Source: a virus (lineage: Duplodnaviria > Heunggongvirae > Uroviricota > Caudoviricetes). From it: a stretch of DNA of 26,407 nucleotides. Made by a program: the position numbers and the translations under genes. Every line of letters starts with the position of its first letter. Position 1 is the stretch's first letter. The notes beneath the pieces were generated by a model, which worked only from the letters and a program-made list of their open reading frames with translations, ran no database searches and was not told the DNA's origin. The stretch lies in the IMG/VR virus record IMGVR_UViG_3300022660_000062, positions 64,001 to 90,407 of that record, one strand, 5' to 3'. This document shows positions 2,952 to 19,862 of the stretch, in pieces.

Positions 2952-3173
2952 ATGTTTGATAAAATTGTTGAATCAATGTTACAGTTTAGTAATACATTCT
3001 GGATGTTGCTCTGTGTTCTTATCTTTGCAATGACAGGTTCTTTTGAGGGTATGCTGATCAGTGGCGTGTTTGCTGTTGTAGTACTCATCATGGAGCTATT
3101 CAGTTGCATTCAGAGAGCAAAGAAAAATAAACGACGTAAGGAACGGACTCATGGAAATCAGAAAGTTACATGA
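2952..3173 (+). CDS. Small membrane protein (73 aa, two hydrophobic segments, basic tail)
   Basis: GAGGGAG RBS; hydrophobic FWMLLCVLIFAM and LISGVFAVVVLIMELF; overlaps the start of the 1629-aa gene. Confidence 0.7.
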   Translation: MFDKIVESMLQFSNTFWMLLCVLIFAMTGSFEGMLISGVFAVVVLIMELFSCIQRAKKNKRRKERTHGNQKVT

Positions 3174-6100
3174 ATCAGATGAGCTTCAAGATAGAGCTAA
3201 GAAACACAAGAAAAACAACAAAGGACTCAGTTTTTACTGTACTCTAAATCCGGATGCAGGAAATGTTGAGCATAATGTTGCAATGTTTAATCATATGAAT
3301 ACTCCAGCCGAAAGTCCTTCTGTTAATCCTTGTGGTCCGATGGCTGAAGCTATGAATACAGATGAGGTTTCACATCTATTCAAGTTGCATGTTGGAGATA
3401 TTGTTGAATATGAAGGTCAAGAGTTTACTGTTGACGCTATACGCAATGATCCTGATCATACAGAGCTTGTTCCTTCGATGCTGAAACTTGGAGATGACTG
3501 GGTTCCTGAAGAATGGGTTGCCCTGAATTTTGATCATAAACTAAGAGAGGATAATAGTAAGATGGATTCACAGATTGAATTGAATTACACCGATCTTGAA
3601 GTGACCATTGTTACAAGACCTCGCAGACCTTCCAGTTATCATTTTGAGTATGATCGAGATGAAGCACAGACAGTTGAAGAGACGATTGATTACGAGTTTG
3701 CTGTTCCGAGATCTGATATTGTGGATTTCATCTATGAAAACATGACTGAAAATGATTTTGCAGATATCGATACTGCAACTGAGGCTGAGGTACTTGAATT
3801 CATTAACAAGAATTTTGACACATTGTTTGCCAAATATGAGTCAATGATTTTGGACGCTTATAGAGATCGAGCAAGAGAAGACGCAGAGGAACATATGAAC
3901 GAATCATTAACAAATAAAGAGCTCGGTGAAGCTACTTGTGGCGTAGAGAAGTTTGTTTCATCACTCGGAAAAGATCTACATGAAGCTTTTTTGAGTAAGT
4001 TGATTGATAGTAATACTTCTGAAGAGCTTCTCAGATTAGAAGCTCTGTATGAGAAGTATGCTCGAGCACACGATGATATGCATACACAGAAGATTGTTGA
4101 AAAGGTTAGATCTGCAATTGCTTCATGCGCAGAAAATACTCAACCCTTAGCTGAGTCGGTGAATGAATACGTTATCATGGCAGTATGTAGCGATGGTAAA
4201 AAACAGTATTACAATGTTTCTTCAGCACCACACTGGGTAGCTAAAGCCAAGGATGCAACAATCTTTGATGACATGGACGAGGCAAGAGCTGTCTGGTTCA
4301 AGTTGGATAAGAAATCTTTCAAGAGAGTATTCATTCCTAACTACGATCATGAAAAAATGAACGAGGCTGTTGACATTGACAAACAGTATCAGCTTGACCT
4401 TCTGCTTGACCGCATCGAAGAAGTTATGGACTGGAAACTCAACAAGAAGTGTAAGACAAGAACTCTTGGCAATAATACTTATCGTGTTGTTCATACTTCT
4501 GGAAACACTTCAATGATTGTTAGATTTGATGTTTCCGACCCTGTCAAGCCACTCACTTTCATGATTGATAAGAAAGGTCCATTCACTGCAAAGAATGAGT
4601 CAGAAGCGGCTAATATCATCTTACGTGAGCTTCAGAACAAACACTCTGACTCATTTGATATGTTTAAGAATGAGGGTTTGAGTGATAGAATTCGTAAGAA
4701 CGACTTGAACTATGATGATGAGCTTGATGCTTATCTTGCATCTGAGGGTGATACAGAAGTGCAGTTCCAAGATCGTGAAACTCATACACATGAATTCCGC
4801 ACAAAGAAAAATCAGTGGGGAAGAAGTTATGTTGATGGGCAGTACAATACACAACCCAAAGTAGCTTCTCATACTTGGGGTCGTGTTTGGAAAGATGGTA
4901 AACTTGTAAAACAGTCTGAAGGTCCAAAGTATCAAGTAAGAGCTGATATTGCAAAATATCTTGATTCTGAAGGTAACTTGGATGAGTCTAAAATCCCTGA
5001 CAACTGGACTAAGTATCGTGGAGCTTGGATGTATCCAGTTTATGGTGGATGGGAAGCAAATCTTGATGGCTTACATTATGAAGCTGAAACTGAAGATGAA
5101 TTGAAGTTAAAGATTGATTCTGCAGTTCGTGATGGGTATACAAAGGATAACAAACTAGCACCGTTGTATCGAGATACACTACCAGCTTATGGTGGTATGC
5201 TCGATGAGGCTTGGAGTCCCGATTACATTGATTGCCCTGTTTGTGGCGATATTTCATTTGACGCAAAGAGGGGCAGATGCACTCAGTGTGCATATCGTGA
5301 ATCTGTTGAGGACGATACTGACGATTTAGAGCATCCTGATCAAGAGTTTGATTCTGCAAAGACCTCTATAAATTCTACTAAGTTACCTGCGGTTTACAGA
5401 ATGGTTAAGATTCCTCAAGGAACTACTGGTGTTGACTTCGGTGGTGGATCTTTTGATAATGCAGTAGAGCACATCCGTGATCTTGGAGCAACTCTATGCG
5501 TCTATGATCCTTATAATCGTTCCGCAGAGCATAATCGAGAAGTTATCAAGACATTGAAAGGTAACGGCGGTGCTGACTGGGCTATCAACTCAAATGTTTT
5601 GAACGTTATCAAGGAACCTGAAGCTCGTAAAGCTGTTTTACAGAATATTTCAAAGATTACAAAATCTGGCGCTCCTGTTTACATTACTGTCTACGAGGGT
5701 CGTGGAGATGGTAAAGAAGGAGCTACTAAGTCAGGTTATCAGTTGAATCGTAGAACTCAAGATTACCTTGCTGAAATTCAAGAAGTATTTCCTGATGCAG
5801 TACGTAAGGGTAAGTTGATTATTGCTCATAACGGCAGAGGACATGTTAACGAAAGTAACAATGCCTATAGTTACAAAGATTACACAATCATCGATGCTGG
5901 TTCTGGTTGGAAAGTTAAGGATGCTTCTCAGAAGTGGGTTGGCAACGAATTTGCAACCGATAGAGACGCAGAGGAGTTTGTTGACTCTCTGAATGAGTCC
6001 TTTTTGGACAGCGATGATAACTACGAGTATGTAGCTAGTAAGTCAGTACTTGATTCAGATGGTTTCTATACTGATTACACTTGGTACAAGAACATTGATG

Positions 6101-8040
6101 GTGTGAATGTATTCGTGTTTGGTGACAATGATATCTACAAGCCTGCTGATGGTTACATTGATCATGAAGAGGAAGATGATACCGCTGCTCAGGAATGGTT
6201 TGATTCTTACAACGGATTTGAAGAAGATATTGTTGACGAGAACTTAGATACAAGCAATGATGTCTTCTGTGTCGATGACCAGTTGGAATGGACTGACTTG
6301 TCTGGTGTGAAGTTCCGAGCACTTGTAACTGATGTCAATGATGATGTTGTAGTTCTCGATATGATGCCCGTAAGCGGAGCTCCTGTTACCAGAACTTTTG
6401 AGCTAACTTGTGACTCTAATGGCAAGGAATGTATCATTGTTGATATGGCCTCCGATAAGAGTGATGCTGTTTATGTTTATCCTCCATATGAAGATCTTGA
6501 AGAGAGCACTGCTTCAAACAAAGTAGTATATCCTAACGGTGAACCTGTTACAGATATTGATCTGAATCGTGCACTTGATTATATGTACGGTACTGATAGA
6601 AATCCTGAGTGGACATACACTGATGCAGAGATGCAGCGGGCAATTTACTACTGGATGGATAAGACTGATCCACATCCATCAGGAAAGTCTTACATGAGCT
6701 TACAAGAATCCTACAACATCAAGTTCTATCAAATTTTCCAAGCCCCATCTAAGCCTACAGAAAATGGTAAGATGATTGGCCAGAGAGATACTCTGAGTGC
6801 TGCCATTGACTTCGGAGAGGATCGTTGTGGTCCTGGAAAGTTCTTTATCAAGGGTGTTTGCGATGATGGCAAAACTAGATACGTAGATTTCTTTAGAAAA
6901 GCAAGGGGTTATGTTCCTTTTGCCAACTACAAAGATGACGTAACAGAATCTTTTGAAGATGATGGACCAGTTTATGTTGCATCTTCAGTTGAGAGTCTGA
7001 ACAACTACTGTGCTGGTTTAGGTGACGCTTGTAAAAGATTACGTGATGGAAACATGTGTTCTTATCGTGGTTATGAAGTAGAATTTGTCGATGGTGAGTA
7101 CAATGTGTTCTTGCTGGAATCAATGAACGAATCCTTTGATGACTATCATTATGCAGTTTACAACAATGATGCTCTTTTGAGAGACAAGCTCTGGAGTGTC
7201 TCTGACGCACTTGAGTTCATTCATGCAAATGGTGGCAACATTATCAAACTTTCAAAAGATGGTGTTGATACTGTTATCTGGAAAGATGGTAAGGCAGTTG
7301 GAAGCGGATTTATCGGTAAGGGCATAGATGCTGATGGAAACGATGTTCACTTTGAAGATGGTGAAGATGTTCCAACTCATGCAGCTCCAGAACCTTTCAA
7401 TCCTAGAAAGTGGTTGTACGGTGAGTCAAAAGAAAACCGACCTCTGTACATTATCAGAGACAGTCACGGAAATCAACTATCTGCTCCTAATCCTGACGAC
7501 GAAGAGCTGTGGGATAGAGTTGCTTCTATGGAAGCAAGAGGAAGACGTGGACTGTGTGTAGTTGCTTATACCGGCAAGAAAGAATCACTGAAAGAGTGGA
7601 ATGAATTCAGTGATGACGATGTTGAAGATGATTTGACTCATGCAGCTGTTTACGGCGGCGATAGCAAGTACTGCAAAGAATGCGGTGCTGTAAAGAAATA
7701 TGATGAGGACGGCTTTTCATATTGTCCTGAGTGCTGTGGTGAACTTGACGAGTCCTACTGGTACAATGATCCTGAACTTCGTCAGAAACAAGATCAGCTA
7801 ATTTCTGAATTAGAAGCTGATGGATTTGAAGAAACAGATGGTCAATCATATGGCACTAAGCATTGGACATTCTTCCGCAAGAGAGTTGATGGTAAGGGAG
7901 TCTGGAAAGCAATCTTTGTTGATACTGGATCAAAAGAAGCTGCAATAATTGATGTAACTTATGGTCAAGTTCGTGGTTATGAGCCACTTGATAGTTTCGA
8001 TGCTCTAAGAAGAGATCTTGGAAACAAGTTATTGCCATAA
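3151..8040 (+). CDS. Large acidic multi-module protein, putative capsid-internal polyprotein (SAM methyltransferase module, two Zn-ribbons)
   Basis: Uninterrupted 1629-aa ORF with AAGGA RBS. Recurrent [L/M/V]-X-E-[S/A] motifs; DFGGG/YDPY/NVLNVI methyltransferase motifs; CPVC-CTQC and CKEC-CPEC pairs. The CDS is certain; the function is inferred. Confidence 0.85.
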   Translation: MEIRKLHESDELQDRAKKHKKNNKGLSFYCTLNPDAGNVEHNVAMFNHMNTPAESPSVNPCGPMAEAMNTDEVSHLFKLHVGDIVEYEGQEFTVDAIRNDPDHTELVPSMLKLGDDWVPEEWVALNFDHKLREDNSKMDSQIELNYTDLEVTIVTRPRRPSSYHFEYDRDEAQTVEETIDYEFAVPRSDIVDFIYENMTENDFADIDTATEAEVLEFINKNFDTLFAKYESMILDAYRDRAREDAEEHMNESLTNKELGEATCGVEKFVSSLGKDLHEAFLSKLIDSNTSEELLRLEALYEKYARAHDDMHTQKIVEKVRSAIASCAENTQPLAESVNEYVIMAVCSDGKKQYYNVSSAPHWVAKAKDATIFDDMDEARAVWFKLDKKSFKRVFIPNYDHEKMNEAVDIDKQYQLDLLLDRIEEVMDWKLNKKCKTRTLGNNTYRVVHTSGNTSMIVRFDVSDPVKPLTFMIDKKGPFTAKNESEAANIILRELQNKHSDSFDMFKNEGLSDRIRKNDLNYDDELDAYLASEGDTEVQFQDRETHTHEFRTKKNQWGRSYVDGQYNTQPKVASHTWGRVWKDGKLVKQSEGPKYQVRADIAKYLDSEGNLDESKIPDNWTKYRGAWMYPVYGGWEANLDGLHYEAETEDELKLKIDSAVRDGYTKDNKLAPLYRDTLPAYGGMLDEAWSPDYIDCPVCGDISFDAKRGRCTQCAYRESVEDDTDDLEHPDQEFDSAKTSINSTKLPAVYRMVKIPQGTTGVDFGGGSFDNAVEHIRDLGATLCVYDPYNRSAEHNREVIKTLKGNGGADWAINSNVLNVIKEPEARKAVLQNISKITKSGAPVYITVYEGRGDGKEGATKSGYQLNRRTQDYLAEIQEVFPDAVRKGKLIIAHNGRGHVNESNNAYSYKDYTIIDAGSGWKVKDASQKWVGNEFATDRDAEEFVDSLNESFLDSDDNYEYVASKSVLDSDGFYTDYTWYKNIDGVNVFVFGDNDIYKPADGYIDHEEEDDTAAQEWFDSYNGFEEDIVDENLDTSNDVFCVDDQLEWTDLSGVKFRALVTDVNDDVVVLDMMPVSGAPVTRTFELTCDSNGKECIIVDMASDKSDAVYVYPPYEDLEESTASNKVVYPNGEPVTDIDLNRALDYMYGTDRNPEWTYTDAEMQRAIYYWMDKTDPHPSGKSYMSLQESYNIKFYQIFQAPSKPTENGKMIGQRDTLSAAIDFGEDRCGPGKFFIKGVCDDGKTRYVDFFRKARGYVPFANYKDDVTESFEDDGPVYVASSVESLNNYCAGLGDACKRLRDGNMCSYRGYEVEFVDGEYNVFLLESMNESFDDYHYAVYNNDALLRDKLWSVSDALEFIHANGGNIIKLSKDGVDTVIWKDGKAVGSGFIGKGIDADGNDVHFEDGEDVPTHAAPEPFNPRKWLYGESKENRPLYIIRDSHGNQLSAPNPDDEELWDRVASMEARGRRGLCVVAYTGKKESLKEWNEFSDDDVEDDLTHAAVYGGDSKYCKECGAVKKYDEDGFSYCPECCGELDESYWYNDPELRQKQDQLISELEADGFEETDGQSYGTKHWTFFRKRVDGKGVWKAIFVDTGSKEAAIIDVTYGQVRGYEPLDSFDALRRDLGNKLLP

Positions 8041-8056
8041 ATCTTAATATAGAATC

Positions 8057-8093
8057 TTGTAGCCGGTGCTGTTGATTTCAGCACCGGCTACAA
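8057..8093. terminator. Strong hairpin, probable terminator or RNA processing site
   Basis: Perfect 15-bp stem TTGTAGCCGGTGCTG / CAGCACCGGCTACAA, 7-nt loop; weak U-tract. Confidence 0.7.
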
Positions 8094-8135
8094 TTGTATA
8101 TCACTATGTACTATTATATGTGAAGGAGATATACA

Positions 8136-10958
8136 ATGGCATTTACTGCAAGTAAACTACTAGAAATTGCTATTGCCGAGCTTGGCTACAAAGAAAAAGC
8201 TTCTAACTTTCAGCTCGATGATAAAGAAGCCAATGCTGGTAGTGGCAACTGGACGAAATATGCTCGTGATCTTCACACCGCAGGATATTATCAAGCAGCT
8301 AAGAACGGTTATGCATGGTGTGACATGTTTGTTGACTGGTGCTTCTTACAGCTTGGTGGCAGCAAAGAAAAAGGCGAATGGCTCGAATGCCAAACAGGAC
8401 TTTATGGTGCAGGATGCGAATGGTCATCTAACTGTTATCGTTGGGCAGATCGTTGCGGAACTGAGCCGAAAGTCGGTGCACAAATCTTCTTTGCTAAAAA
8501 CGGTAAAGGATCTGAAGAGCATACAGGTATTGTAGAAAAGTTTGACAGTAACTATGTTTACACAATTGAGGGTAACGCAAGTAACATGGTAAAGCGTAAA
8601 ACATACGCTCGTAATTCTGATTACATCCTGTGTTATGGATATCCAAGATTTGATGAGACTACAAATGAGACGCAAGCAACAACTTCAACAATTGCTGCTG
8701 ATCATTTTGACAAAGGGGATGTCGTTAAGATTGTTTCTGGCGCTAACTGGTTAAGTGGATCTGCTGTTCCTACATGGGTGATCAAGAAGGAATGGATTAT
8801 TAAAGAAGTTTCTACTTCTGATGGTAGAGTTGTTGTCAATGAATCAGTTGATGGAGCAAACAAGATCAATAGTCCTATTCACTATTCTTCTCTAGTTCTT
8901 GTTAAGGCTGCTAATCCGAAAGAGGATAAAGTTGAAACAGAGCTGGACGGAGGAAACAAGGAAACTGAGGTTGCTCAAAGTAGTTTGAAGTATTCTACTG
9001 CAAATCCGCCGCTTGTTTGTATGCAGACTCAGAGCACTTGTTATAAGGGCACAACCGAAATGACTGTTCTTGGTGTGCTGTGGCATAGTACAGGTGCAAA
9101 CAACAAGACTATCAAGCGCTATGTTCAGCCTAGTGACAATGATCCAAACAAAGATGCTCTGCTTAAGTTAATCGGTAAGAATCAGTATAACAATGACTGG
9201 AACCATATTGACAGACAAGCTGGTTTGAATGCTTGGATTGGTACATTAGCTGATGGCACAGTTACGACCGTTCAGACAATGCCCTGGAACTTTAGACCTT
9301 GGGGCTGTGGAAGTGGTAAGAATGGTTCTTGTAACAGTGGCTGGATTCAGTTTGAGATCTGTGAGGATAACTTACAAGACGCTGACTATTTCAACAAGGC
9401 ATACACAGAAGCTTGCGAGCTAACTGCGTATCTTTGTAAGATGTTTAATCTTGATCCTCATGGAACCATTAACTATAATGGAGTTAAAGTTCCCGTTATC
9501 CTTTGTCATGCAGATTCTTATGATCTTGGTTTCGGATCAAATCATGGTGACATTGATCACTGGTTCCCGAAGCATGGTAAGTCAATGGTAACAGTAAGAA
9601 ATGATGTTGCAAAGTTACTCCAGAATTCAACACAAGCTGCTCCAGTAGAAGGTGTATACCAGAAGGGTGTTGCAACTCAGCTTTCTAAGAATTTCAAATC
9701 AACTGAATTTGATTGTCATGGAGATGGCTGTTGCACTACAACAGAAGTAGATCCAAAACTTGTTACTTATTTACAAACAATTCGTGATCATTTTGGCAAG
9801 GCTGTTAATATTAGCAGCGGATATAGATGTGCAACACACAACAAGAGTGTTGGAGGAGCTGTTGGTTCAAGACATACAAAAGGTCAAGCAGCTGATATCT
9901 ATATTAACGGTGTAACTCCTTTGGAGATTGCTCGTTACGCAGAACAACTTGGCATCTTAGGAATTGGTTTATATGAAACTGATGAAGATGGTCATTTTGT
10001 ACATGTTGACACAAGAGCGACAAAGTCATTCTGGTATGGACAAGCACAAGCTAAGAGAGATACATTCCAAGAGCCTGTTAAAATTGATATATCAAAAGTT
10101 AACACAGCAAAAGCTGATCCGAAGCATGTTTGGGACTTCTTGAAAGCAAAAGCATTGAATGATTTTGCAGTGGCTGGTTTGATGGGCAATTTGCTTGCTG
10201 AGTCAAACATGTTACCAATCAACTTGCAAAACACTTATGAGAAGAAGCTCGGTATGACAGACGCTGAGTATACAGCAGCAGTTGACCAGGGAATCTACAA
10301 AGATTTCGTCAAAGATAGCGCAGGCTATGGTCTAGCTCAGTGGACATACTACAGCCGTAAGGAAGACTTGTTGGAGTATGCTACTTCTCAGAAGAAATCA
10401 ATCGGTGATTTAGATATGCAGCTGGAATTCTTGTGGACTGAGCTTCAAAGATACAAGGCTGTTATGAAGCAGTTGAATGAAGCAACTTCAGTTAGGGAAG
10501 CTTCTGATGTAATTCTTCATGACTATGAAGCTCCTGCTGATCAAAGCGAGGCTGTTGAAATCAAGCGTGCTGAATTTGGACAGAAGTATTTTGATGACTA
10601 TGCCGTATGTATGCACAAGTCAACAGAAATTCAGAACCAGAAAGATGCAACTTGTACAGAAGCTGGATATACAGGTGATAAGGTATGCTCTGAATGTAAC
10701 TTTGTAGTAGAAGTGGGGTCACTTATTCCTCCTATTCAGCACAACTATAGCTTGACAGGAAAGCTTGAGCCTACAATTGAAACAGAAGGCTACACTGGAG
10801 ATCAAGTTTGTTCAAGATGCAATCATACAATCAAGGGAGAAGCAATCAAGAAGTTGAGTCCGATTGTTGTTACTCCTGAAGATGATGAGGTTAAGATTAC
10901 TATCAAGAAGAGCTGGATCCAGAAGTTGATTGAGTGGTTGCTCAGCTTGTTAAAATAA
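8136..10958 (+). CDS. Multi-catalytic peptidoglycan hydrolase 1: CHAP + SH3-like + amidase_2 + peptidase M15 + phage lysozyme-2 + Cys/His repeats
   Basis: CHAP: WCDMFVDW, HTGIV, TIEGN. Amidase: VLWHSTG, WIQFEICED, ILCH, NHGD. M15: SGYRC..HN..VGG...SRH..GQAADI, HVD. Lysozyme-2: AGLMGNLLAES, GYGLAQWT. AAGGAG RBS. Confidence 0.92.
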   Translation: MAFTASKLLEIAIAELGYKEKASNFQLDDKEANAGSGNWTKYARDLHTAGYYQAAKNGYAWCDMFVDWCFLQLGGSKEKGEWLECQTGLYGAGCEWSSNCYRWADRCGTEPKVGAQIFFAKNGKGSEEHTGIVEKFDSNYVYTIEGNASNMVKRKTYARNSDYILCYGYPRFDETTNETQATTSTIAADHFDKGDVVKIVSGANWLSGSAVPTWVIKKEWIIKEVSTSDGRVVVNESVDGANKINSPIHYSSLVLVKAANPKEDKVETELDGGNKETEVAQSSLKYSTANPPLVCMQTQSTCYKGTTEMTVLGVLWHSTGANNKTIKRYVQPSDNDPNKDALLKLIGKNQYNNDWNHIDRQAGLNAWIGTLADGTVTTVQTMPWNFRPWGCGSGKNGSCNSGWIQFEICEDNLQDADYFNKAYTEACELTAYLCKMFNLDPHGTINYNGVKVPVILCHADSYDLGFGSNHGDIDHWFPKHGKSMVTVRNDVAKLLQNSTQAAPVEGVYQKGVATQLSKNFKSTEFDCHGDGCCTTTEVDPKLVTYLQTIRDHFGKAVNISSGYRCATHNKSVGGAVGSRHTKGQAADIYINGVTPLEIARYAEQLGILGIGLYETDEDGHFVHVDTRATKSFWYGQAQAKRDTFQEPVKIDISKVNTAKADPKHVWDFLKAKALNDFAVAGLMGNLLAESNMLPINLQNTYEKKLGMTDAEYTAAVDQGIYKDFVKDSAGYGLAQWTYYSRKEDLLEYATSQKKSIGDLDMQLEFLWTELQRYKAVMKQLNEATSVREASDVILHDYEAPADQSEAVEIKRAEFGQKYFDDYAVCMHKSTEIQNQKDATCTEAGYTGDKVCSECNFVVEVGSLIPPIQHNYSLTGKLEPTIETEGYTGDQVCSRCNHTIKGEAIKKLSPIVVTPEDDEVKITIKKSWIQKLIEWLLSLLK

Positions 10959-10978
10959 CGGTTATTTCACATACAAAG

Positions 10979-11008
10979 AATGAGGTGCTATTCGCGTAGC
11001 ACCTCATT
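10979..11008 (+). terminator. Probable intrinsic terminator
   Basis: 12-bp stem AATGAGGTGCTA / TAGCACCTCATT, loop TTCGCG, followed by TCTT. Confidence 0.75.
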
Positions 11009-11058
11009 TCTTGTATATAAAGTATATAGATCAAACTTTGAGGAAGGATGTTGATAGT

Positions 11059-13569
11059 ATGGCGTTACGTTTGAATGTTGTTGCCATCGCTGATGGTGGT
11101 GGTAAGCCTGCCTCTCAGACCGAAGTTGTTCATTCCTATACAGTTGATGCTCTGCTTGCAATTGCTCTAGCAGAGAAGGGCTACAAAGAGAAGAGTAGTA
11201 ATTCAAGTTTAGATAGTAAGACAGCTAACGCAGGAAGTAACAACTACACAAAGTATGCAAGAGATCTTCATAATGCTGGTTATTACCAAGCAAGCAAGCA
11301 AGGATTTGCTTGGTGTGATATGTTCGTTGATTGGTGTTTCTATAAGCTTGTTTGTAATGTAACAGGTAAGACTGGAAAAGATGCTCGGTTGATAGCTAAC
11401 GAGTTGATCTGCGTGAATGAAAATCAACTATATGGAGCAGGATGTGCTGAGTCTCGTGGTTACTACAAGGAAAAAGGACGTTTAGGAAATCTACCAGTAA
11501 AGGGCGCTCAAATATTTTTCTGGGAAGCCGGTGAAGTTTCTCACACAGGTATTGTTACAGGATTTGATGCTAATCAAGTTTATACCATTGAGGGTAATAC
11601 AAATAATCAAGTTAATGAGCGAGCATACAAGCGGAATGATAGCAGTATTGTTGGCTATGGCTATCCGAAGTTAACAGGACTGAAAGTACCAACCGGATCT
11701 ACTGTTCCTCCTGACCCTCCAAGCTCTTATGGCGAGGATACCAGTACTGAAAATACAGACAGTTATAACGGTGGTAACAGTGTCGGCGGAAGCGGCTCAG
11801 TCATCTCCTATACATTTGATGGGCTGAAATATTCAGATGATAACCCACCCTTGTACTGCCCGCAAACTCAAAGCACTTGTTGGAGAGGCACCAGTAAGAA
11901 TATGACTATTCGCGGAGTGTTGTGGCACGATACTGGTGCTGGAAACCCTGAGATTCGTAGATATGTTCAACCCGATGACAATGCCAATGATCGAGAGTAC
12001 TGGATAAACCTACTTGGTAAGAATCAGTATAACAATGACTGGAATCATGCTGAACGACAAGCAGGAATGAATTGCTGGATAGGTAAACTAGCGGATGGAT
12101 CTGTTACAACTGTTCAGACAATGCCTTGGAATTATAAACCTTGGGGTTGTGGCGGCGCATGTAATGACGGCTGGATTCAGTTTGAAATCTGTGATGATGT
12201 TGACCACGGCGATGATCCCGACTACTTCCATGCTGCTTATGAAGAAGCTTGCCAGATAACGGCATACTTGTGTGCAAAGTTTAATCTAGACCCTCTTGGA
12301 ACTGTGGAGTTCAAAGGAAAACAAGTTCCTGTTATACTTGATCATCGAACTTCTTGTAAACTTGGACTCGGAAGTAACCACGGTGATGTTAGAGGTTGGT
12401 TCAAGAAATATGGTAAATATGCTGACGAAGATGGCATGCAGATTGTTCGTCAAGATGTTGCAGCACTTTTAAGTAAGGGCGGTAACTATATTCCAAATGT
12501 TAGGATTGACGATATTGTTACTGTTGATCCCGGAGCAACAGCAAAAGATGGTTCAGTTGCTGCGCCATGGATTACATCTAAGCGTTGGAAAGTTTCTAAT
12601 ACATCCTCAGAGGATGAGTATGCGATTCTTGGCCAGCGCGAGGATACCGCATCTGTTGTACTGAATAGGGCTTACAAGAAATCAAATCTGACTGTAGTTA
12701 CTGCTAATGGATCTGTAACTCCTTCTCCTAACACAGGCAACTTAACTAACAAAGAAAGAATTTGGAACATTCTTTCTAGCAAAGTTAAGGATAGTAATGG
12801 ACAAACAAACTATTTCGGAGTTGCTGGAATCATGGGTAACATGATGGCAGAGTCTGGTCTTAGACCAAACAATCTTCAGAATACATATGAAAAAAGTTTA
12901 GGTTACAGTGATGAAAGTTACACTGCTGCTGTTGATAACGGAACATATACAAACTTTGTACGAGACAGCGCAGGTTATGGACTAGTTCAGTGGACATACT
13001 GGTCTTTGAAGGAAGAACTACTTAAATACGCTCAAGAACATAACAAATCCATTGGTGATCTAGATATGCAAGTAACATTCTTGTGTCATCAGTTGTCAAC
13101 GGGATATACATCTGTTTGGAATACTTGTTGTAACGCTAAAACTGTTAAAGAAGCCTCTGATAAGATGCTACATGGTTTCGAACGACCTTACGGACATGAT
13201 GGCGTCAACAAAGAGTCACAAGAAAGTAAGAGAGCTCAGTTTGGTACTGATATTTACAACGAGCTAGTCAACGGTTGTTCTCATTCGGAAACAGTAACAC
13301 GAGATAATTGCGCTGCAACTTGTTCCTCTGATGGATACACAGGTGATGAGGTTTGTTCTTCCTGTGGCTTAACTGTTAGATTCGGTGACATTATTCCTGC
13401 AACTGGTCATAACTATCAGTATGGTGTATGTACTATTTGTGGGGCAACTCCAGAGCAAGATAATGGTGGAGGAGGATCTGTTCCAAACATCACAAATGGT
13501 ATTGTTACTCGAGATGATTTGATTCAGATTCTTTCTGTTTTGAAAGATATGCTAAGTAGAGAAAGTTGA
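11059..13569 (+). CDS. Multi-catalytic peptidoglycan hydrolase 2, paralogue of hydrolase 1: CHAP + amidase_2 + SH3-like + phage lysozyme-2 + Cys/His repeats
   Basis: WCDMFVDW/HTGIV/TIEGN; VLWHDTG/WIQFEICDD/ILDH/NHGD; AGIMGNMMAES/GYGLVQWT. Start moved from 11011 to ATG 11059, which follows AGGAAGGA. Confidence 0.92.
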   Translation: MALRLNVVAIADGGGKPASQTEVVHSYTVDALLAIALAEKGYKEKSSNSSLDSKTANAGSNNYTKYARDLHNAGYYQASKQGFAWCDMFVDWCFYKLVCNVTGKTGKDARLIANELICVNENQLYGAGCAESRGYYKEKGRLGNLPVKGAQIFFWEAGEVSHTGIVTGFDANQVYTIEGNTNNQVNERAYKRNDSSIVGYGYPKLTGLKVPTGSTVPPDPPSSYGEDTSTENTDSYNGGNSVGGSGSVISYTFDGLKYSDDNPPLYCPQTQSTCWRGTSKNMTIRGVLWHDTGAGNPEIRRYVQPDDNANDREYWINLLGKNQYNNDWNHAERQAGMNCWIGKLADGSVTTVQTMPWNYKPWGCGGACNDGWIQFEICDDVDHGDDPDYFHAAYEEACQITAYLCAKFNLDPLGTVEFKGKQVPVILDHRTSCKLGLGSNHGDVRGWFKKYGKYADEDGMQIVRQDVAALLSKGGNYIPNVRIDDIVTVDPGATAKDGSVAAPWITSKRWKVSNTSSEDEYAILGQREDTASVVLNRAYKKSNLTVVTANGSVTPSPNTGNLTNKERIWNILSSKVKDSNGQTNYFGVAGIMGNMMAESGLRPNNLQNTYEKSLGYSDESYTAAVDNGTYTNFVRDSAGYGLVQWTYWSLKEELLKYAQEHNKSIGDLDMQVTFLCHQLSTGYTSVWNTCCNAKTVKEASDKMLHGFERPYGHDGVNKESQESKRAQFGTDIYNELVNGCSHSETVTRDNCAATCSSDGYTGDEVCSSCGLTVRFGDIIPATGHNYQYGVCTICGATPEQDNGGGGSVPNITNGIVTRDDLIQILSVLKDMLSRES

Positions 13570-15515
13570 GTGATTGGATGGCTGAAGAAAGATTTGTATA
13601 CCAAGTAGGAGATCTAATTCAGATCGATCCTACAGCAACACGCATTGATGGATCCTCAATTGATGCTGACTTGAAGGGAAATAACTACAACTGGTTTGTT
13701 ACGGATGTTGATCCTACAAACTTTACTTTGACTCTCGGAGCATACAGAGCATTTGGATTGAGATATAGATGGAATCCTCCGATTGTAATTCATGAGGATT
13801 TTGTGTCTAAGATAGTTAAACTTGTTTGTAGACACGCAAACGCAGTTGTTGACTCAAAAGTTGAACCTACTTGCTTGGAAGATGGTCTAACTGAAGGCAG
13901 GCACTGTCCTGACTGTGGTGAAGTTCTTCTAGCACAGCATAAGATTCCTAAACTGGAACACGAATATGTGTACGATATGGATCAAGGTGTTAAAACTTGT
14001 ACAAAGTGTAAACATCAGATATTTGACTCAGAACGATCCATTGATCTTACAGGAGACGACATCAGAAAGATGATTCAGATAATTGAGGCTATGCTTTCAT
14101 ATGATTCATCTTCACCAGTTCCCCCTGAAGTTATTCCTGAGGTAGATCCTCCTGTGGAGCCAGTATTTAGTTCCGATATTACATTTACAAGCGAGTGGAA
14201 AACAGATCTGGATCTTCCTTACTTGTTTTATACTCCTTCAAGTGCAACAACCGACGGAACAACTCCGCTCATTGTTTGGCTACACGGTTCAGATGAGTGC
14301 GGTGCAAGCGAGAGCATATTCCGCGACAGAGGCTTGCCTGCTGTTTTGAAAAGCTGGTCATTGAAAGGTTTCAACGCATACATACTTTGCCCCAGACTTC
14401 CTGGAGGTATCAAATGGACTCAACGATCCGATTCTGTTTTCAGTATGATTTCTAACATTGTTAGTAAGTACAAAGTTGATACACGAAAGATCATACTTAT
14501 GGGCCACTCTCTTGGTGGTATTGGAACTGAGTACATTGCGTTCCAGAAACCTGGTTATTTCTCGTGTCAGATTATAATGAGCGGTTACAGTTCTGGAGTA
14601 GATCTATCTCAGTTAAAAGATCTACCAACAAGGGTGTATGCTGAAAATTCAGAGTATTCAGCTCATTACAACACACTGAAAAATACATTTGGGCAGGAGG
14701 CTTGTACGGTTCTCAACTGTGGTCATGGTGAAGTTCCTGGTAAGGCATTAACTATTGAAAAGTCAGACGCTGCCGGTGTATCTGATCTTCTGTACTGGGC
14801 AATCTCTCAAACAAATGAACAACTTGATGATACAGAGAGTGAGCCTAAATTACAAGTTCCCTTTACAACTGTTGTTACAGCTGATGGTGTAAATCTTAGA
14901 ACTGGACCTGGAACAGAGTATGACGTTGCGGATAGCAATAACAAGGCTTATGCTGGACAACAGCTGACTATAGTTGAAATTGTACAATCCGGTAATCATA
15001 ATTGGGGTAAGCTAGATCCGAATATCTGGAAAACCTCAAAGACAAGTAGTTGTATCGGAAAATCTGATCGCTGGATAGCACTAGAGTACACAACTGCTTT
15101 TAACTCGGAAACATTTAAGACTCCTACATGGATATATCCATTATCATATCAAAGGCTATCAAGCCCTTATGGTTATAGAATACATCCTATCAGTGGAGAA
15201 TGGAAAATGCACTGGGGTGTAGATCTTGGAGCATACTGGGGAACTCCGATATATGCAACAAAAGCAGGAACTGTTTCAACAGTGGCTTATCAAGAGGATG
15301 GGGCCGGAAATTATATCTGTATAAAACATGAAGATGGAACTCAGTCTGATTATTTCCATCTTGAAGAGCAACTTGTTTCTGTTGGTGACAAAGTTGAAGC
15401 CGGACAGCATATCGGTAGATGTGGCAGCACTGGCGGATCAACAGGCCCTCATTTGCATTTCCAGATATGGGAGAACGGCTCTAGACAAGATCCGGCAGAG
15501 TACATTGATTTCTAA
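13566..15515 (+). CDS. Multi-domain hydrolase 3: SH3-like + Cys/His repeats + alpha/beta-hydrolase esterase + SH3b + M23 peptidase
   Basis: PLIVWLHGS and GHSLGG nucleophile elbow; VNLRTGPGTEY (SH3b); HWGVDLG and HLHF (M23). TTG start overlaps the upstream TGA; the exact start is uncertain. Confidence 0.88.
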   Translation: MSDWMAEERFVYQVGDLIQIDPTATRIDGSSIDADLKGNNYNWFVTDVDPTNFTLTLGAYRAFGLRYRWNPPIVIHEDFVSKIVKLVCRHANAVVDSKVEPTCLEDGLTEGRHCPDCGEVLLAQHKIPKLEHEYVYDMDQGVKTCTKCKHQIFDSERSIDLTGDDIRKMIQIIEAMLSYDSSSPVPPEVIPEVDPPVEPVFSSDITFTSEWKTDLDLPYLFYTPSSATTDGTTPLIVWLHGSDECGASESIFRDRGLPAVLKSWSLKGFNAYILCPRLPGGIKWTQRSDSVFSMISNIVSKYKVDTRKIILMGHSLGGIGTEYIAFQKPGYFSCQIIMSGYSSGVDLSQLKDLPTRVYAENSEYSAHYNTLKNTFGQEACTVLNCGHGEVPGKALTIEKSDAAGVSDLLYWAISQTNEQLDDTESEPKLQVPFTTVVTADGVNLRTGPGTEYDVADSNNKAYAGQQLTIVEIVQSGNHNWGKLDPNIWKTSKTSSCIGKSDRWIALEYTTAFNSETFKTPTWIYPLSYQRLSSPYGYRIHPISGEWKMHWGVDLGAYWGTPIYATKAGTVSTVAYQEDGAGNYICIKHEDGTQSDYFHLEEQLVSVGDKVEAGQHIGRCGSTGGSTGPHLHFQIWENGSRQDPAEYIDF

Positions 15516-15572
15516 ACAAGGAGTCATGTATATAAGATAATACATCATGACGAAGGAAAGGTAGATATTTTT

Positions 15573-16181
15573 ATGGCTGAGTTCTGCAAGGACTGCTTCA
15601 AGAAGATTGAGTCATCTGTTAGTGAACAAGATCTCGTACTTAGTTCTGATGCAGAGTTATGTGAAGGCTGTGGTGAGATGAAGCCAGTCGTTCTTGAAGT
15701 AAAAACTTCCGAACCTTCAATGACTGTTGCAGAGTGTCAAGTAGAGACTCAAAAACACATTGAAATGGTTCGTAAATATATTAGATTCATGATTGATAAA
15801 ATTGAGATGCGCGGTGTAAAACATGATGCTTCAAAATTAGAATCTCCAGAGGTTGAACTATTCACACAGTTCACTCCTAAGCTTGCATCTACTACTTACG
15901 GTAGTGATGAATATAAAAGTTATCTTGAAGGCTTAAAACCTGCTCTTGATCATCACTATGCAAGTAACAGACATCATCCTGAGCACTTTGTTAACGGCGT
16001 TAACGACATGACTCTGATTGACATTATCGAGATGTTTTGTGATTGGAAAGCAAGTACTCACAGAATGAACGATGGAAATCTCTTAAAGAGCATTGATGTT
16101 AACACAGACAGATTTCACATCGAAGAGCAGCTAAAACAAATCTTTGTTAATACTGCTAGAATGATTGATGAGCATGAATAA
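15573..16181 (+). CDS. HD-like (DUF5662-type) protein with N-terminal CxxC...CxxC
   Basis: HIEMV, HDASKL, HHYASNRHHPEH and EMFCDW motifs; N-terminal CKDC and CEGC. Confidence 0.75.
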   Translation: MAEFCKDCFKKIESSVSEQDLVLSSDAELCEGCGEMKPVVLEVKTSEPSMTVAECQVETQKHIEMVRKYIRFMIDKIEMRGVKHDASKLESPEVELFTQFTPKLASTTYGSDEYKSYLEGLKPALDHHYASNRHHPEHFVNGVNDMTLIDIIEMFCDWKASTHRMNDGNLLKSIDVNTDRFHIEEQLKQIFVNTARMIDEHE

Positions 16182-16229
16182 CACATTCATGTATATACAA
16201 CTGTAATCTTACATAAAGGAGATATGTTT

Positions 16230-16547
16230 ATGAATTGGGAAATTCTACTAACTGTTCTTGCAAGTATTTGTACAGTTGTTGCTCTATTTATCAGCTACTA
16301 TTTCTACATCAAGAGAAAGATTGAGGCTGAAGTTCCTGGAGCGATCAACGGTGCAGAAGACACTGGCATGAGCGGTGCAGAAAAGTTTGAAGAGGCTGTA
16401 GATACAATCTACGCGCTTATTCCTGTTGCAGTAAGGCCTTTCATTACAAGAAGTCTTGTGGAAACACTTGTTCAAGAAGTGTTTGATAAGATGGAAGAAT
16501 ATGCAAGAAAGCAGCTTGACAAGGAAGCAGAGCCGACTGAAGCTTAA
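16230..16547 (+). CDS. Probable holin (LL-H-like, single N-terminal TM)
   Basis: N-terminal hydrophobic helix, then AINGAE...GAEKFEEAV...VETLVQE pattern; lies downstream of the lysins. AAAGGAGA RBS is 7 nt from ATG 16230 but only 1 nt from ATG 16224. Confidence 0.7.
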   Translation: MNWEILLTVLASICTVVALFISYYFYIKRKIEAEVPGAINGAEDTGMSGAEKFEEAVDTIYALIPVAVRPFITRSLVETLVQEVFDKMEEYARKQLDKEAEPTEA

Positions 16548-16561
16548 GTAATAGCATTTCA

Positions 16562-16598
16562 AATAAACTGCGTATGATGAGTTCATACGCAGTTTATT
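16562..16598. terminator. Intrinsic terminator, possibly bidirectional
   Basis: Perfect 16-bp stem AATAAACTGCGTATGA / TCATACGCAGTTTATT, 5-nt loop. Confidence 0.85.
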
Positions 16599-16607
16599 AG
16601 TTTACAC

Positions 16608-16636
16608 TTGACTTTCATGTATAAACATTATATAAT
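16608..16636 (+). promoter_or_regulatory. Near-consensus sigmaA promoter
   Basis: TTGACT (16608-16613) - 17 nt - TATAAT (16631-16636). Confidence 0.8.
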
Positions 16637-16707
16637 GTTTATGATAAATAAGCATTCGTCTAATAATTTCTAGAATTCAATATATAATAAGTATAGAGGA
16701 AGACTTA

Positions 16708-18006
16708 ATGAGAGAGCTAATCGTCGTAACATACAAGTTGCCTGCGGATCCTCTCACTCGTAAAATTTACGGTGATGACTTAGAGAACATGTATGATTGT
16801 ACAGCTTTCTGGAACGATGAATTATCCGCTCCAGAAATCAAAAAATTACAAAGAAAATATGATGAGGTTGAATCTTTTGTTTGCAACTTTGCTGCTTACA
16901 ATGACTGGGTGGATAATGAGGCTGCTTGGGCTGAGTTTGTGAAAACTGGAGCTTGTCCGTTGAAGCCAGTTGCGGAGTCAGTTGATGTTGGAACAGATTC
17001 CAGAACTATCAACATTGAATGCGCGGTTCGTATTCAGCGAGAAAATCCGGAAGCAACATTTGAGTACAATGTTGACATTGATGATGTAGGTCAGATTGTG
17101 TTCACGCCATATGACGCTGGAACAAGATTTTGTCATGAAGGTGAAGATGCTGTGGAGGGCGAGGATGTTAAGTTTGAGACTGTTCATTTAACAGCTCAGA
17201 TGATTTCAGATTGTGATAACTATGATTACTTTATGGGAACAGATGAGATTGGTCAATTTGTTATCACTCCGGATGTTCAGGATTCCTCTTTCTTAACTGT
17301 TTCAGTTGAAGATTCACTCAACCTTGTTACGGAAGGAGCTGATAGCATTGTTGTTGATCCTGATTACGTTCCTGAATTTGATATCGGAGATCGAGTTGTT
17401 GTTCACCTCAATGGAAATGATCGTCCTGGTGTGATCGTAGATTATGTAGATACTGATCCAATGGATGATGCTACTGGTGCTGATTCTGGTGAATTTGAAG
17501 CTTGGGTTGTTAGCTTTGACGACAGCACTCAAGAGATGATCGGAACATGTTATATGACACATGAGAATGAGATTGCAGAATGTGAGGAAACTGATTCTAT
17601 GAAAGTACTGAAAGAATCTAATAAGTATAGAGATTTTGATTGGAATGACGATCTTTATGCTGTTATCAAAAACGATGGAACCTATGCTGGAGTTCCTTGC
17701 CGTAGTTATGCGGAAGCTAGCCAGTTAGCATATCATCCTGGCTCAAAGATTTTCAAGCTTGTTCTAGAGGATGATGCTACTGAGGAACCACTGGAAGAGG
17801 ATCTTTCTGAGCTTGACCGTATGGATGTCGTTAACAAAGTTATGCGTGGTGAACTAAGTGTGTTCAGTGGAGACGGTGAGCCTGAAGAAAGTTACATTCC
17901 TATTCCAGAGTTGAATACCACTCACGGAAAGTTGGATTTTGAATACTATTATGACGAAGCAACAGGTGAAGTTATTTCTTATTCAAAACCAAGAAGAGAT
18001 TTCTAA
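16708..18006 (+). CDS. Acidic multi-module hypothetical protein (432 aa), putative head-internal protein
   Basis: GAGGA RBS; very Asp/Glu-rich; VAES, LKES and LEED motifs; SH3/Tudor-like segment FDIGDRVVV..RPGVIVD. Confidence 0.8.
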   Translation: MRELIVVTYKLPADPLTRKIYGDDLENMYDCTAFWNDELSAPEIKKLQRKYDEVESFVCNFAAYNDWVDNEAAWAEFVKTGACPLKPVAESVDVGTDSRTINIECAVRIQRENPEATFEYNVDIDDVGQIVFTPYDAGTRFCHEGEDAVEGEDVKFETVHLTAQMISDCDNYDYFMGTDEIGQFVITPDVQDSSFLTVSVEDSLNLVTEGADSIVVDPDYVPEFDIGDRVVVHLNGNDRPGVIVDYVDTDPMDDATGADSGEFEAWVVSFDDSTQEMIGTCYMTHENEIAECEETDSMKVLKESNKYRDFDWNDDLYAVIKNDGTYAGVPCRSYAEASQLAYHPGSKIFKLVLEDDATEEPLEEDLSELDRMDVVNKVMRGELSVFSGDGEPEESYIPIPELNTTHGKLDFEYYYDEATGEVISYSKPRRDF

Positions 18007-18299
18007 TGAGCATATACGATAACTTATTTACCATTGCGCCAAAACCACAGTTGCGATATAGTGTCATTCGTGAGGGTGAGGAAGAGTCAGGAGTTGACTG
18101 GTTAGTTCAGTTTGAACTAGAACCTTCCGAATTTGATGACTCTTTTGATTCAAACTATCGAGAAGAAATTGTCATCACAGCCGCAGACTTTGATACTGCT
18201 CACAAGTATGCACAACAGTACATTAGAACTATGCAGCTTAAATCTGAAACAAGCGATCAATGGAAGAACGCTGAGATTGTTTCAGTTGATAAAATCTAA
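18006..18299 (+). CDS. Hypothetical protein (97 aa)
   Basis: TAATG stop/start overlap with the upstream gene. Confidence 0.75.
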   Translation: MSIYDNLFTIAPKPQLRYSVIREGEEESGVDWLVQFELEPSEFDDSFDSNYREEIVITAADFDTAHKYAQQYIRTMQLKSETSDQWKNAEIVSVDKI

Positions 18300-18314
18300 C
18301 AGTTATTATATAAT
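18286..18314 (+). promoter_or_regulatory. sigmaA-type promoter
   Basis: TTGATA (18286-18291) - 17 nt - TATAAT (18309-18314), upstream of AAGGA and ATG 18336. Confidence 0.65.
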
Positions 18315-18335
18315 ATATGTATAAAAGGATAAGAC

Positions 18336-18836
18336 ATGAAGTTCAGTAAGTTGTTTCTTGATGAATCCTTGTTTGATAGTACATCAATGAAGTACGATGA
18401 TGATTTCAGTGAGGCTGAACTTCCTCCTGAGAGTTTGCAGGGACCGACCTCTGGGTCCGATTCTGGTGTAACAGATTTAGTCATAACTGCAATAAACGAC
18501 GAGTGGGAAGCAATTCGGACTTATAATTCTATCATCGAGACTTTGAAGTATGAAGCTCCTAACAATGAAGATTATGTAAGATTTATTCAGATTCTGAATG
18601 ATATCAATGCAGAAGAAAACAAACATGTGGGACAGCTTCAAGAAATTCTACAGAGATTATCACCAAACGCGAAATTCATCGACAAAGGACGTGATGAAGG
18701 AAGATCACAGTTTAATTTTGCGAACGGTTTGTTACAAGTTCAGGCCTGGGAGCCGAAACAAACAACTGCCACAGTAACTCCAGATGTTTCTGGTGAAGAT
18801 GTGTGCACATTAACTGACATTGATGACGATATGTGA
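18336..18836 (+). CDS. Ferritin-like (two-helix, EncFtn/rubrerythrin-like) protein with N-terminal LDES leader
   Basis: AINDEWEAIRTY...DINAEENKHVGQL matches the E..E..Y / EExxH diiron ligand pattern. Confidence 0.65.
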   Translation: MKFSKLFLDESLFDSTSMKYDDDFSEAELPPESLQGPTSGSDSGVTDLVITAINDEWEAIRTYNSIIETLKYEAPNNEDYVRFIQILNDINAEENKHVGQLQEILQRLSPNAKFIDKGRDEGRSQFNFANGLLQVQAWEPKQTTATVTPDVSGEDVCTLTDIDDDM

Positions 18837-18848
18837 GGATTGATACAT

Positions 18849-19862
18849 ATGGCAAAACGTAGATTAAAAAATGAATCAATTGATAATCTGCAGAGAGTTG
18901 TAGACGCAGAAGCTCCTGCAGTAGTTGGACAGATGGATGTTGTCATGGCAGACGCTGTTCAGGAGAGCGCTAAGAATGACGAACATGCAGAGGAAGTTGC
19001 TACTCAGCTGCAGAAGACTGCTGATGTAGTTATTCCTGAAGATCCGAAAGAGGAGAAACCTGCTGTTGATAACAAGTTTACAGCAAAGTTAGTTCTGGAT
19101 GAATCTCTGGAAGATTTCTCCCTTGTAACAGAGGATGCTACTCCTAAGGATGGTAGAGCAAGAAAAGTTTATGACGATGACGACGAAGATGAATATCTGG
19201 ATTACGATATGTTTGACTTCGTCTATGGTCTTGTAACAGACTGCTGGCCTAAGCCCTTGAACCCTCTTGGACACAAGATGCGTAAGTTCATGTACATTGG
19301 TTCTGATAAGTACATGGATTCTCCTGATGCGGACACTCGTGATTCTTCTGATGGTCATGCTCAGGTTGCAAGCTATGGCGACTCCATTGAAGTTTATTCC
19401 AACAATCCTGCAGACTTCAAAGACATTGAGGATGTCTGTAAGCTGTATAAGCTGAGCTACTCTGGTCCTCACCGCAGACGCAGCAAGAGTACTTACTGGG
19501 AGTATTCATTCCGTGTAAATGTTCCTTGTGTGAGCAGTGGTTATCCTTACATGGTTGAGGAGTACTTCGAGACTCTTGGAATGACTATGGAAGATGTGAT
19601 GCCTGCTGATTTCTGCAAACAGTATCGCAAGAGACAAGCAACAGTTGAGAAAGAAGCAAAGAAGTATATCAATCAGGCTGAAGTTGATAAGCTGATCGAT
19701 AAAGCAATCACTGCTGCAGCTCAGGACAACACTGAGCCCTTGGAAGCACATCTTAAGAGACTTTATGTAGATTTAGATGCCGCTGGTTTAACTTACCAGA
19801 AATCCAAAGTTAAGAAAACCTTCATGGACGCTTTTGATGATCCTGAGGAAGACGACGAATAA
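18849..19862 (+). CDS. Acidic hypothetical protein, possible prohead core or internal protein
   Basis: GAGGA RBS fits ATG 18849 rather than TTG 18840. N-terminus MAKRRLKNES; internal VQES and LDES; poly-acidic tracts. Confidence 0.75.
   Translation: MAKRRLKNESIDNLQRVVDAEAPAVVGQMDVVMADAVQESAKNDEHAEEVATQLQKTADVVIPEDPKEEKPAVDNKFTAKLVLDESLEDFSLVTEDATPKDGRARKVYDDDDEDEYLDYDMFDFVYGLVTDCWPKPLNPLGHKMRKFMYIGSDKYMDSPDADTRDSSDGHAQVASYGDSIEVYSNNPADFKDIEDVCKLYKLSYSGPHRRRSKSTYWEYSFRVNVPCVSSGYPYMVEEYFETLGMTMEDVMPADFCKQYRKRQATVEKEAKKYINQAEVDKLIDKAITAAAQDNTEPLEAHLKRLYVDLDAAGLTYQKSKVKKTFMDAFDDPEEDDE

Follow-up and report, generated by a model that had tools for sequence, protein, structure and literature searches.

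How does a phage mark the proteins that are to be packed inside its head? The question was raised by three genes in a 26,407-nucleotide stretch of viral DNA (hereafter the window), which forms the final 26.4 kb of the 90.4 kb IMG/VR record IMGVR_UViG_3300022660_000062 (G000), rated 41% complete. The plus strand holds all of the long open reading frames (ORFs) of the window, and three of these, encoding proteins of 1629 (3151-8040), 166 (18336-18836) and 337 residues (18849-19862), open with the short leaders MEIRKLHE/S, MKFSKLFLDE/S and MAKRRLKNE/S (the slash marks the putative cut bond, with P1 before it and P1' after it). An earlier note on this DNA had compared the leaders to MKTYQEFIAE, the capsid-targeting sequence that T4's internal proteins carry, and proposed that they were a head-packaging tag. 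Our analysis points in the same direction: with a probability of about 0.6, and by analogy with T4, the leaders end in a site for the prohead protease of the phage, and the proteins that carry them would be loaded into the prohead and trimmed there, which probably applies to two of the three genes and less clearly to the third. What the analysis established, and what this reading builds on, is that the gene for the enzyme is present and that the candidate cleavage motif is conserved, is enriched in head-region proteins and coincides with the boundaries of protein modules.

The protease gene was found outside the window. The JGI contig Ga0257077_10000181 (222,986 bases) differs from the window at 6 of the 17,559 bases that they have in common and hence represents the same phage; the window is the end of the genome of a ~223 kb uncultured gut phage. 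On this contig, 29 kb downstream of the gene for the 337-residue protein, are genes for a portal (Portal_T4, PF07230; E 2.5e-41), a protease (Peptidase_S77, PF03420; 39.2 bits against a cut-off of 27, E 7e-10), a Gp23-type major capsid protein (E 3.5e-33) and a gp13-like adaptor. In the 524-residue protease the Peptidase_S77 domain is N-terminal and a long coiled-coil tail follows, and over 117 residues the protein is 34% identical to T4 gp21, with the segments GELGHP and GELNHP, and GVSSRG, aligned. The same set of portal, protease and capsid genes was present in a relative, IMGVR_UViG_3300032167_000020 (G002; 92% complete), in which the 337-residue protein is 53% identical and the Peptidase_S77 domain scored 45.2 bits by hmmscan. 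A PF03420 profile search of three genomes (G000, G001 and G002) had given nothing, which was a failure of sensitivity, as the hmmscan match in G002 shows; negative family searches in such a genome-level first pass can miss diverged phage proteases. Metagenomes hold more than 3,000 relatives of the capsid protein, i.e., the phage belongs to a large family of uncultured phages with genomes of ~220 kb.

T4 gp21 and its homologues in giant phages all cut C-terminal to a glutamyl residue (PMC5694885; PMC9026906; PMC3012670), and the proteins of the head region here were rich in a motif of that kind, hydrophobic-x-E/[SA], with the hydrophobic residue at P3. The protease itself has nine such sites where 1.9 would be expected, the first of them immediately behind the protease domain and the others spread along the coiled coil. 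The protein (gene at 5882-7456 in locus L024) has a tail of ~340 residues that is studded with cut motifs, and since there is no separate gp22-like scaffold gene between the protease and capsid genes, the tail is probably the scaffold. The capsid protein starts with MATKSLFE/A and has NRFMNE/A at residue 51, both upstream of its Gp23 domain (which starts at about residue 67), while a 441-residue head-region protein that starts with MSFDYINE/A has eight sites versus 2.1 expected, and its 380-residue neighbor has KKRLNE/S at residue 15. The starts of the capsid and 441-residue proteins also show that the leader is not basic as a general rule, which had been part of the original idea. In seven head-region proteins 12.5% of the glutamates are in the motif, versus 4.7% in 56 early proteins (Fisher p 3e-6), and the association between a hydrophobic P3 and a Ser or Ala at P1' had an odds ratio of 4.0 in the head-region set versus 1.2 in the early set, figures to be read with the head set having been picked in part for the motif and the protease and capsid protein alone chosen blind. 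For the portal and terminase, as for most of the tail and fibre proteins, the counts were at or below expectation, and two lysins and one fibre-like protein were about twofold above it.

For the leaders, conservation is real evidence, beyond any count of pattern matches. The 166-residue protein has 96 homologues with identities to it of about 36-98%, and in the 87 closest, from which the residue frequencies were taken, the leader and its flank (MKFSKLFLDE/SLFDS; 18336-18380) are better conserved than the rest of the first 40 residues. The first 15 residues of the family read M-K-F-x-K-L-x-L-D-E-S-L-F-D-D (M1 98%, K2 89%, F3 89%, L8 97%, E10 99%, S11 82% with the others mostly Ala, and L12 and F13 86%), and the linker that follows varies in both length and sequence. 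After M1, the most conserved leader residues are L8 and E10. In T4 IPIII it is likewise residues 8 and 10 on which processing depends, and targeting depends on residues 4 and 7 (PMC5694885; PMC9026906; PMC3012670). Across six loci the leader codons vary synonymously (AAG/AAA, TTC/TTT, TTG/TTA/CTT/CTC, GAA/GAG and TCC/TCA/TCT), which indicates selection on the peptide and not on the RNA. In the structure model the leader is in a disordered region of low confidence. The predicted complex of the protease domain with residues 1-45 of this family scored 0.02, against a mark of 0.32, and was counted neither way.

Behind the leader, the 166-residue protein is modeled as a helical hairpin (residues 41-108; predicted local distance difference test score, pLDDT, ~84-98), and E56, Y63, E93, E94 and H97 are invariant in the family, which also conserves the linear motifs Y-D-D-D-F and, at the C-terminus, C-T-L-x-D-V-D-D-E-M. 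The best PDB profile matches were EncFtn of Pyrococcus furiosus (E 0.032) and EncC of Myxococcus xanthus, with profile E-values of 0.03-0.3, and the alignments pair the E-x6-Y and E-E-x-x-H-V-G segments, so that the five invariant residues fall on these segments of EncFtn, a family in which the iron ligands of the two-helix hairpin are Glu, Tyr and Glu-x-x-His. In a Foldseek search with the model, the top 37 rows were encapsulated ferritins or close ferritin-like relatives (E 0.2-0.5, probability 0.9-0.99). By VIA-align the model gave a Z of ~9 against ferritins, no better than unrelated helical hairpins, so the fold alone cannot establish the ferritin assignment. Based on the model and profile matches together, the acidic 166-residue product is probably a two-helix protein of the encapsulated-ferritin type. 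Our literature search found no description of a phage-encoded EncFtn homologue.

The gene for the 337-residue acidic protein is always directly 3' of the 166-residue gene in relatives. Its N-terminal leader, MAKRRLKNE/S (18849-18878), takes the form M-x-K-R-R-x-K-x-E-[SA] in most of 89 homologues, E9 being present in 73 and a Ser or Ala at position 10 in 84. Remote homologues that have no N-terminal leader begin with M-A-I-E-N/K at or near the Ser/Ala position. A second motif is found inside the protein, KLVLDE/SLEDF at residues 80-90 (19086-19118), and its family consensus, K-L-x-L-D-E-S-[IL]-x-D-F, recurs at the N-terminus of the 166-residue family. L83 and E85 are invariant (89/89), and D84 (84/89), S/A86 (82/89), D89 (84/89) and F90 (82/89) are nearly so. 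The structure model places this internal motif in a linker (pLDDT <50) between an N-terminal helical part and a C-terminal domain. It is more likely that the main predicted cut would be internal, after residue 85 at KLxLDE/S, with the N-terminal KRR..E/S a second, weaker candidate site, and this gene is the weaker member of the leader set. The protein has no Pfam or PHROG family, and fold searches (Foldseek against the PDB and AlphaFold clusters) yielded nothing convincing.

The eight-residue leader of the 1629-residue protein, with its P1' serine (3151-3177), is conserved in the close relatives, nine of nine of which read M-[KE]-[IV]-x-[KR]-L-x-E, followed in eight by Ser or Ala; five other relatives start with M-N-E-L, the Met replacing the P1' residue. 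The protein as a whole is a mosaic that contains 19 E-S dipeptides and 18 hydrophobic-x-E/[SA] sites, against 4.2 expected from shuffles (Poisson 5e-7). Its modules match four stretches in three separate genes of G002, and three of the four start at, or within about 8 residues after, a hydrophobic-x-E/S site in both proteins. From the junction L-A-E/S (residues 333-336; 4147-4158), the sequence L-A-E/S-V-N-E-Y aligns with the N-terminus of a separate 588-residue G002 gene, MKIRQLNE/S-V-E-P-T, i.e., what is an internal junction in one protein is a leader in the other. The module after L-N-E/S (residues 947-950, with the bond at 949/950; 5989-6000) matches residues 22-89 of the 453-residue G002 gene 199290, where it stands behind L-L-K-E/S (residue 17), and the N-terminal module is internal in a 676-residue G002 gene, there behind F-N-E/S. 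The fourth stretch (residues 1185-1246) follows L-Q-E/S in the 1629-residue protein only. The context of the site in gene 199290 (199290-200651), C-K-L-L-K-E/S-T-T-S, closely resembles E-L-L-R-E/S-T-T-T of T4 gp24, a likeness that may be a coincidence or may reflect a conserved recognition context.

Two further junctions, Y-R-E/S (5293-5304) and V-N-E/S (5845-5856), flank a methyltransferase-like module at residues 718-901 (5302-5853), in which matches start at query residues ~716-723 and end at ~892-912; the Tyr at P3 of the first junction is outside the strict hydrophobic set. The module scored 22.4 bits against PF13489, below the cut-off of 27, and it is the sole enzymatic module recognised in the protein, the other modules matching no family. 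It recurs at varied positions in 2,765 representative metagenomic proteins, and in other lineages it is flanked by [ST]-[AS]-E junctions in proteins with different N-termini, differences that agree with a protease grammar specific to each lineage. Those proteins often start with M-K-R-Y-I-K-S-S, M-K-I-x-K-x-S or M-S-x-I-N-I-R-E-S-L. Among the 150 best representative relatives of the 1629-residue protein, internal sites are denser in the 30 that start with a hydrophobic-x-E/[SA] leader (median 8.6 per 1000 residues) than in the others (~3; Mann-Whitney p 1e-12, a value inflated by the kinship among these sequences). No part of the protein is better conserved than a 35-residue stretch at 3244-3348 (L-N-P-D-A-G-N-V-E-H-N-V-A-M-F-N through G-P-M-A-E), which is 77% identical to an internal stretch of a G002 gene, contains P-A-E/S and is itself followed by M-A-E/A.

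As for the three N-termini as they had originally been described, all were confirmed by translation, each start codon is preceded by a Shine-Dalgarno-like site, and for the 337-residue gene the ATG at 18849 was preferred over a TTG at 18840, since its homologues start with M-x-K-R-R. The three proteins are indeed mutually unrelated, with no BLAST match between them below E 0.1. The description of them as acidic was correct (isoelectric points of 4.1-4.6) and uninformative, as nearly every protein in the window is acidic (4.0-6.2). The observation that lysin and tail genes do not have the leader also stands: E-S is absent from the first 12 residues of every lysin and tail-fibre-like gene product of the window, and in the DUF5662 protein (15573) residues 10-14 are K-K-I-E-S. 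A reading of the leaders as signal peptides or lipoprotein signals was rejected because no hydrophobic stretch follows the basic residues. The pattern that the earlier note had proposed for scanning the proteome matched four of 118 ORFs in the 90 kb record where ~1.2 would be expected, an excess in the right direction that is weak on its own, and the fourth match, a 53-residue ORF at 19336 of the record (MALGFSDLLES), was taken to be a false positive, being in a tRNA region and unsupported.

The comparison with T4 can be drawn quite closely. In T4, N-terminal propeptides of 10-20 residues on the internal proteins, Alt and gp24 are capsid-targeting sequences (PMC5694885; PMC9026906; PMC3012670). 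In the T4 record itself, gp24 starts with MAKINELLRE-S, gp22 with MLKEQLIAE-A and gp67 with MEGLIE-A, and gp23 has ..FLTE-A at residue 65. Like the targeting sequences of IPI, IPII, IPIII and Alt, and the 10-residue propeptide of gp24, all of which gp21 removes, the leaders here are tags of 8-10 residues that start with M-K or M-A-K, and they share the hydrophobic P3 and the Glu at P1, followed by Ser or Ala, on otherwise unrelated proteins. The phage has, moreover, the gp20-type portal, gp21-type protease and gp23-type capsid protein of T4. The differences are that the consensus here is M-K-F-x-K-L-x-L-D-E versus M-K-T-Y-Q-E-F-I-A-E in T4, with P1' mostly Ser; that the protease is fused to its coiled-coil tail whereas T4 has a separate gp22; and that the putative cargo, known here from sequence alone, is a ferritin-like protein and a 1629-residue mosaic, and in T4 consists of small basic internal proteins. 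The analogy is well founded for the cut site, with a gp21-family protease present and leaders ending in the motif of that family, and reasonable for a putative role in targeting; the part of it that fits less well is MAKRRLKNE, with a Lys at P3.

Several observations weigh against the T4-like reading, in addition to the way in which the head set was chosen. That same Lys means that the third leader meets the hydrophobic-x-Glu rule only in part. Homologues without a leader exist in both the 337- and 1629-residue families, so that the tag is dispensable in some relatives. The motif is short, and a loose N-terminal version of it is found in ~4% of early genes, which makes the proposed pattern too loose to find all cargo genes in a genome as had been hoped; the loose pattern was about threefold more frequent in late-region ORFs (10/89) than in others (10/266; Fisher p 0.012). 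The three genes are 29 kb from the cluster of head genes, with lysin and fibre-like genes as their neighbors, and their position alone does not imply a location in the virion. Lastly, in the 166-residue family the residues after the putative cut (S-L-F-D-D) are conserved as strongly as those before it, which fits an extended recognition site and also a binding motif that is never cut.

Such a binding motif would mean that K-L-x-L-D-E-S-[LI]-x-D-F binds a partner (the scaffold, the interior of the capsid or a host protein) and is not lost on maturation. The conservation on both sides of the bond, from P3 to P5', and the location of the motif in disordered segments, which are typical places for binding motifs, both speak for this, yet it leaves unexplained why the core motif is enriched in the tail of the protease and at the module junctions of the 1629-residue protein, and why homologous modules start close behind it, and we consider it improbable. 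Chance, or a bias of translation starts (Met-Lys, A-rich early codons and a short E-S dipeptide), we consider more improbable still. It would be in keeping with the small excess in the pattern scan described above and with a second position that is often Lys (24% K or E). It does not account for a leader that is kept down to about 37% overall identity despite synonymous codon drift, in an alignment whose wide range of identities shows that it is not dominated by near-identical sequences, nor for the identical motif 80 residues inside the 337-residue family or an enrichment confined to head-region proteins.

A third possibility, unlikely in our view though deserving of more weight than these two, is that the motifs are protease sites and nothing else. 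The proteins would then enter the head via other contacts, e.g., the acidic D-D-D-F or C-terminal motifs that the 166-residue family conserves, and their first residues would merely be trimmed, with no role as an address. This would be in agreement with the presence of the core motif inside proteins, where the M-K-[FI]-x-K prefix is lacking, and with the leaderless homologues of two families. What it does not explain is the conservation of K2, F/I3, K5 and L6 in at least five unrelated families and two genomes, since a protease that reads mainly P3 and P1 would not need these residues. A strict pattern, M-[KE]-[FIV]-x-[KRQ]-L, which was defined after seeing the data and does not include the third leader (KRR..KNES), is present in six of the 355 ORFs of G000 and G002, versus ~0.25 expected, and all six, from at least five families, are in the late region and have a Glu within two to four residues after it. 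In T4 the equivalent upstream residues are targeting determinants (PMC9026906).

On the T4-like reading, the sequence of events may be envisaged as follows. Late in infection, proteins would be made with a tag of 8-10 residues (consensus M-K-[FI]-x-K-L-x(1-3)-E) and would join the core of the assembling prohead, K2, F/I3, K5 and L6 upstream of the cut acting as the address, as in the targeting sequences of T4. The gp21-family serine protease would then cut after the Glu of hydrophobic-x-Glu and before the Ser or Ala, thereby removing the tag, trimming the capsid protein and degrading its own scaffold-like coiled-coil tail, and it would probably also split the 1629-residue protein at its module junctions. 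That cutting occurs is what we infer from the motif and the enzyme, and the products would presumably reside in the head and accompany the DNA into the host. A bolder and less likely version, which we offer tentatively, is that the protease may dice the 1629-residue protein into at least 15 small proteins within the prohead, at junctions that are the leaders of separate genes in relatives, and that the same tag may load an encapsulated-ferritin homologue into the capsid.

Head maturation of this kind also has precedents beyond T4. In the giant phages phiKZ, 201phi2-1 and SPN3US, the proteases gp175/gp245 cut after Glu and many inner-head and ejection proteins are processed, often at several sites, and paralogues can have short conserved N-termini such as MANFVKSKLARE-S (PMC5694885). 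The phage studied here shares with them a gp21-related protease and the Glu at P1, and differs in its motif, L/M/V/I-x-E/[SA] in place of S/A/G-x-E or A-x-E, and in having leaders of 8-10 residues where the propeptides of the giant phages are mostly longer than 100 residues. There is a likeness between the 1629-residue protein and the polyvalent proteins described by Iyer et al. (2017; PMC5512222), a class in which one polypeptide combines several unrelated effector-type domains; those likewise are very large multi-module proteins among late genes, predicted to enter the particle and to be delivered together with the DNA, and they have a methyltransferase-like module shuffling between architectures. 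For those proteins processing by a built-in metallopeptidase domain was proposed, whereas the junctions here have the motif of a separate prohead protease. There is a parallel as well with the cargo of encapsulins, in that a two-helix ferritin-like protein (an assignment with moderate support) is apparently addressed into an HK97-fold shell by a short terminal peptide. Encapsulin tags, by contrast, are located at the C-terminus, stay on the cargo and bind the shell protein, and the peptide here is at the N-terminus, with a putative protease site at its end.

The wider setting of the three genes in the window is as follows. Early-type genes (RNA 2'-phosphotransferase and dCMP deaminase) precede the 1629-residue gene, after which are three multi-domain wall hydrolases and the DUF5662 protein, and then a conserved block of four genes for acidic proteins (432, 97, 166 and 337 residues) followed by fibre-like genes. 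The order of the whole four-gene cassette (16708-19862) is kept in locus L018 and that of its last three genes in locus L019, and within the cassette the K-L-x-L-D-E-S motif is limited to the last two genes. Just past the end of the window, 3' of the fibre-like genes, is a gene for a 2209-residue leucine-rich repeat protein (PF13306, LRR_5; locus L021, 11234-17863). In a GenBank phage collection (50,697 records), a distant-mode search found no DNA match to the window, and there was no protein match to the two of the three leader proteins that were used as queries.

The principle involved is already known, being textbook T4 biology, and what is unusual is the putative cargo, a ferritin-like protein and a mosaic giant protein that comprises a methyltransferase-like module and many small modules besides. 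It is also a case of modules being shuffled among a single giant gene and a number of small ones, with retention of the protease site at each boundary. If the T4-like reading is correct, the grammar of tag and cut site would provide a sequence-based shortlist of head cargo, presumably delivered to the host, a shortlist that would have to be backed by conservation, since the motif by itself is too unspecific. And should the dicing of the giant protein and the loading of the ferritin homologue also prove true, the phage head would be a natural counterpart of the encapsulin nanocompartment, with a portable, lineage-specific cargo grammar.

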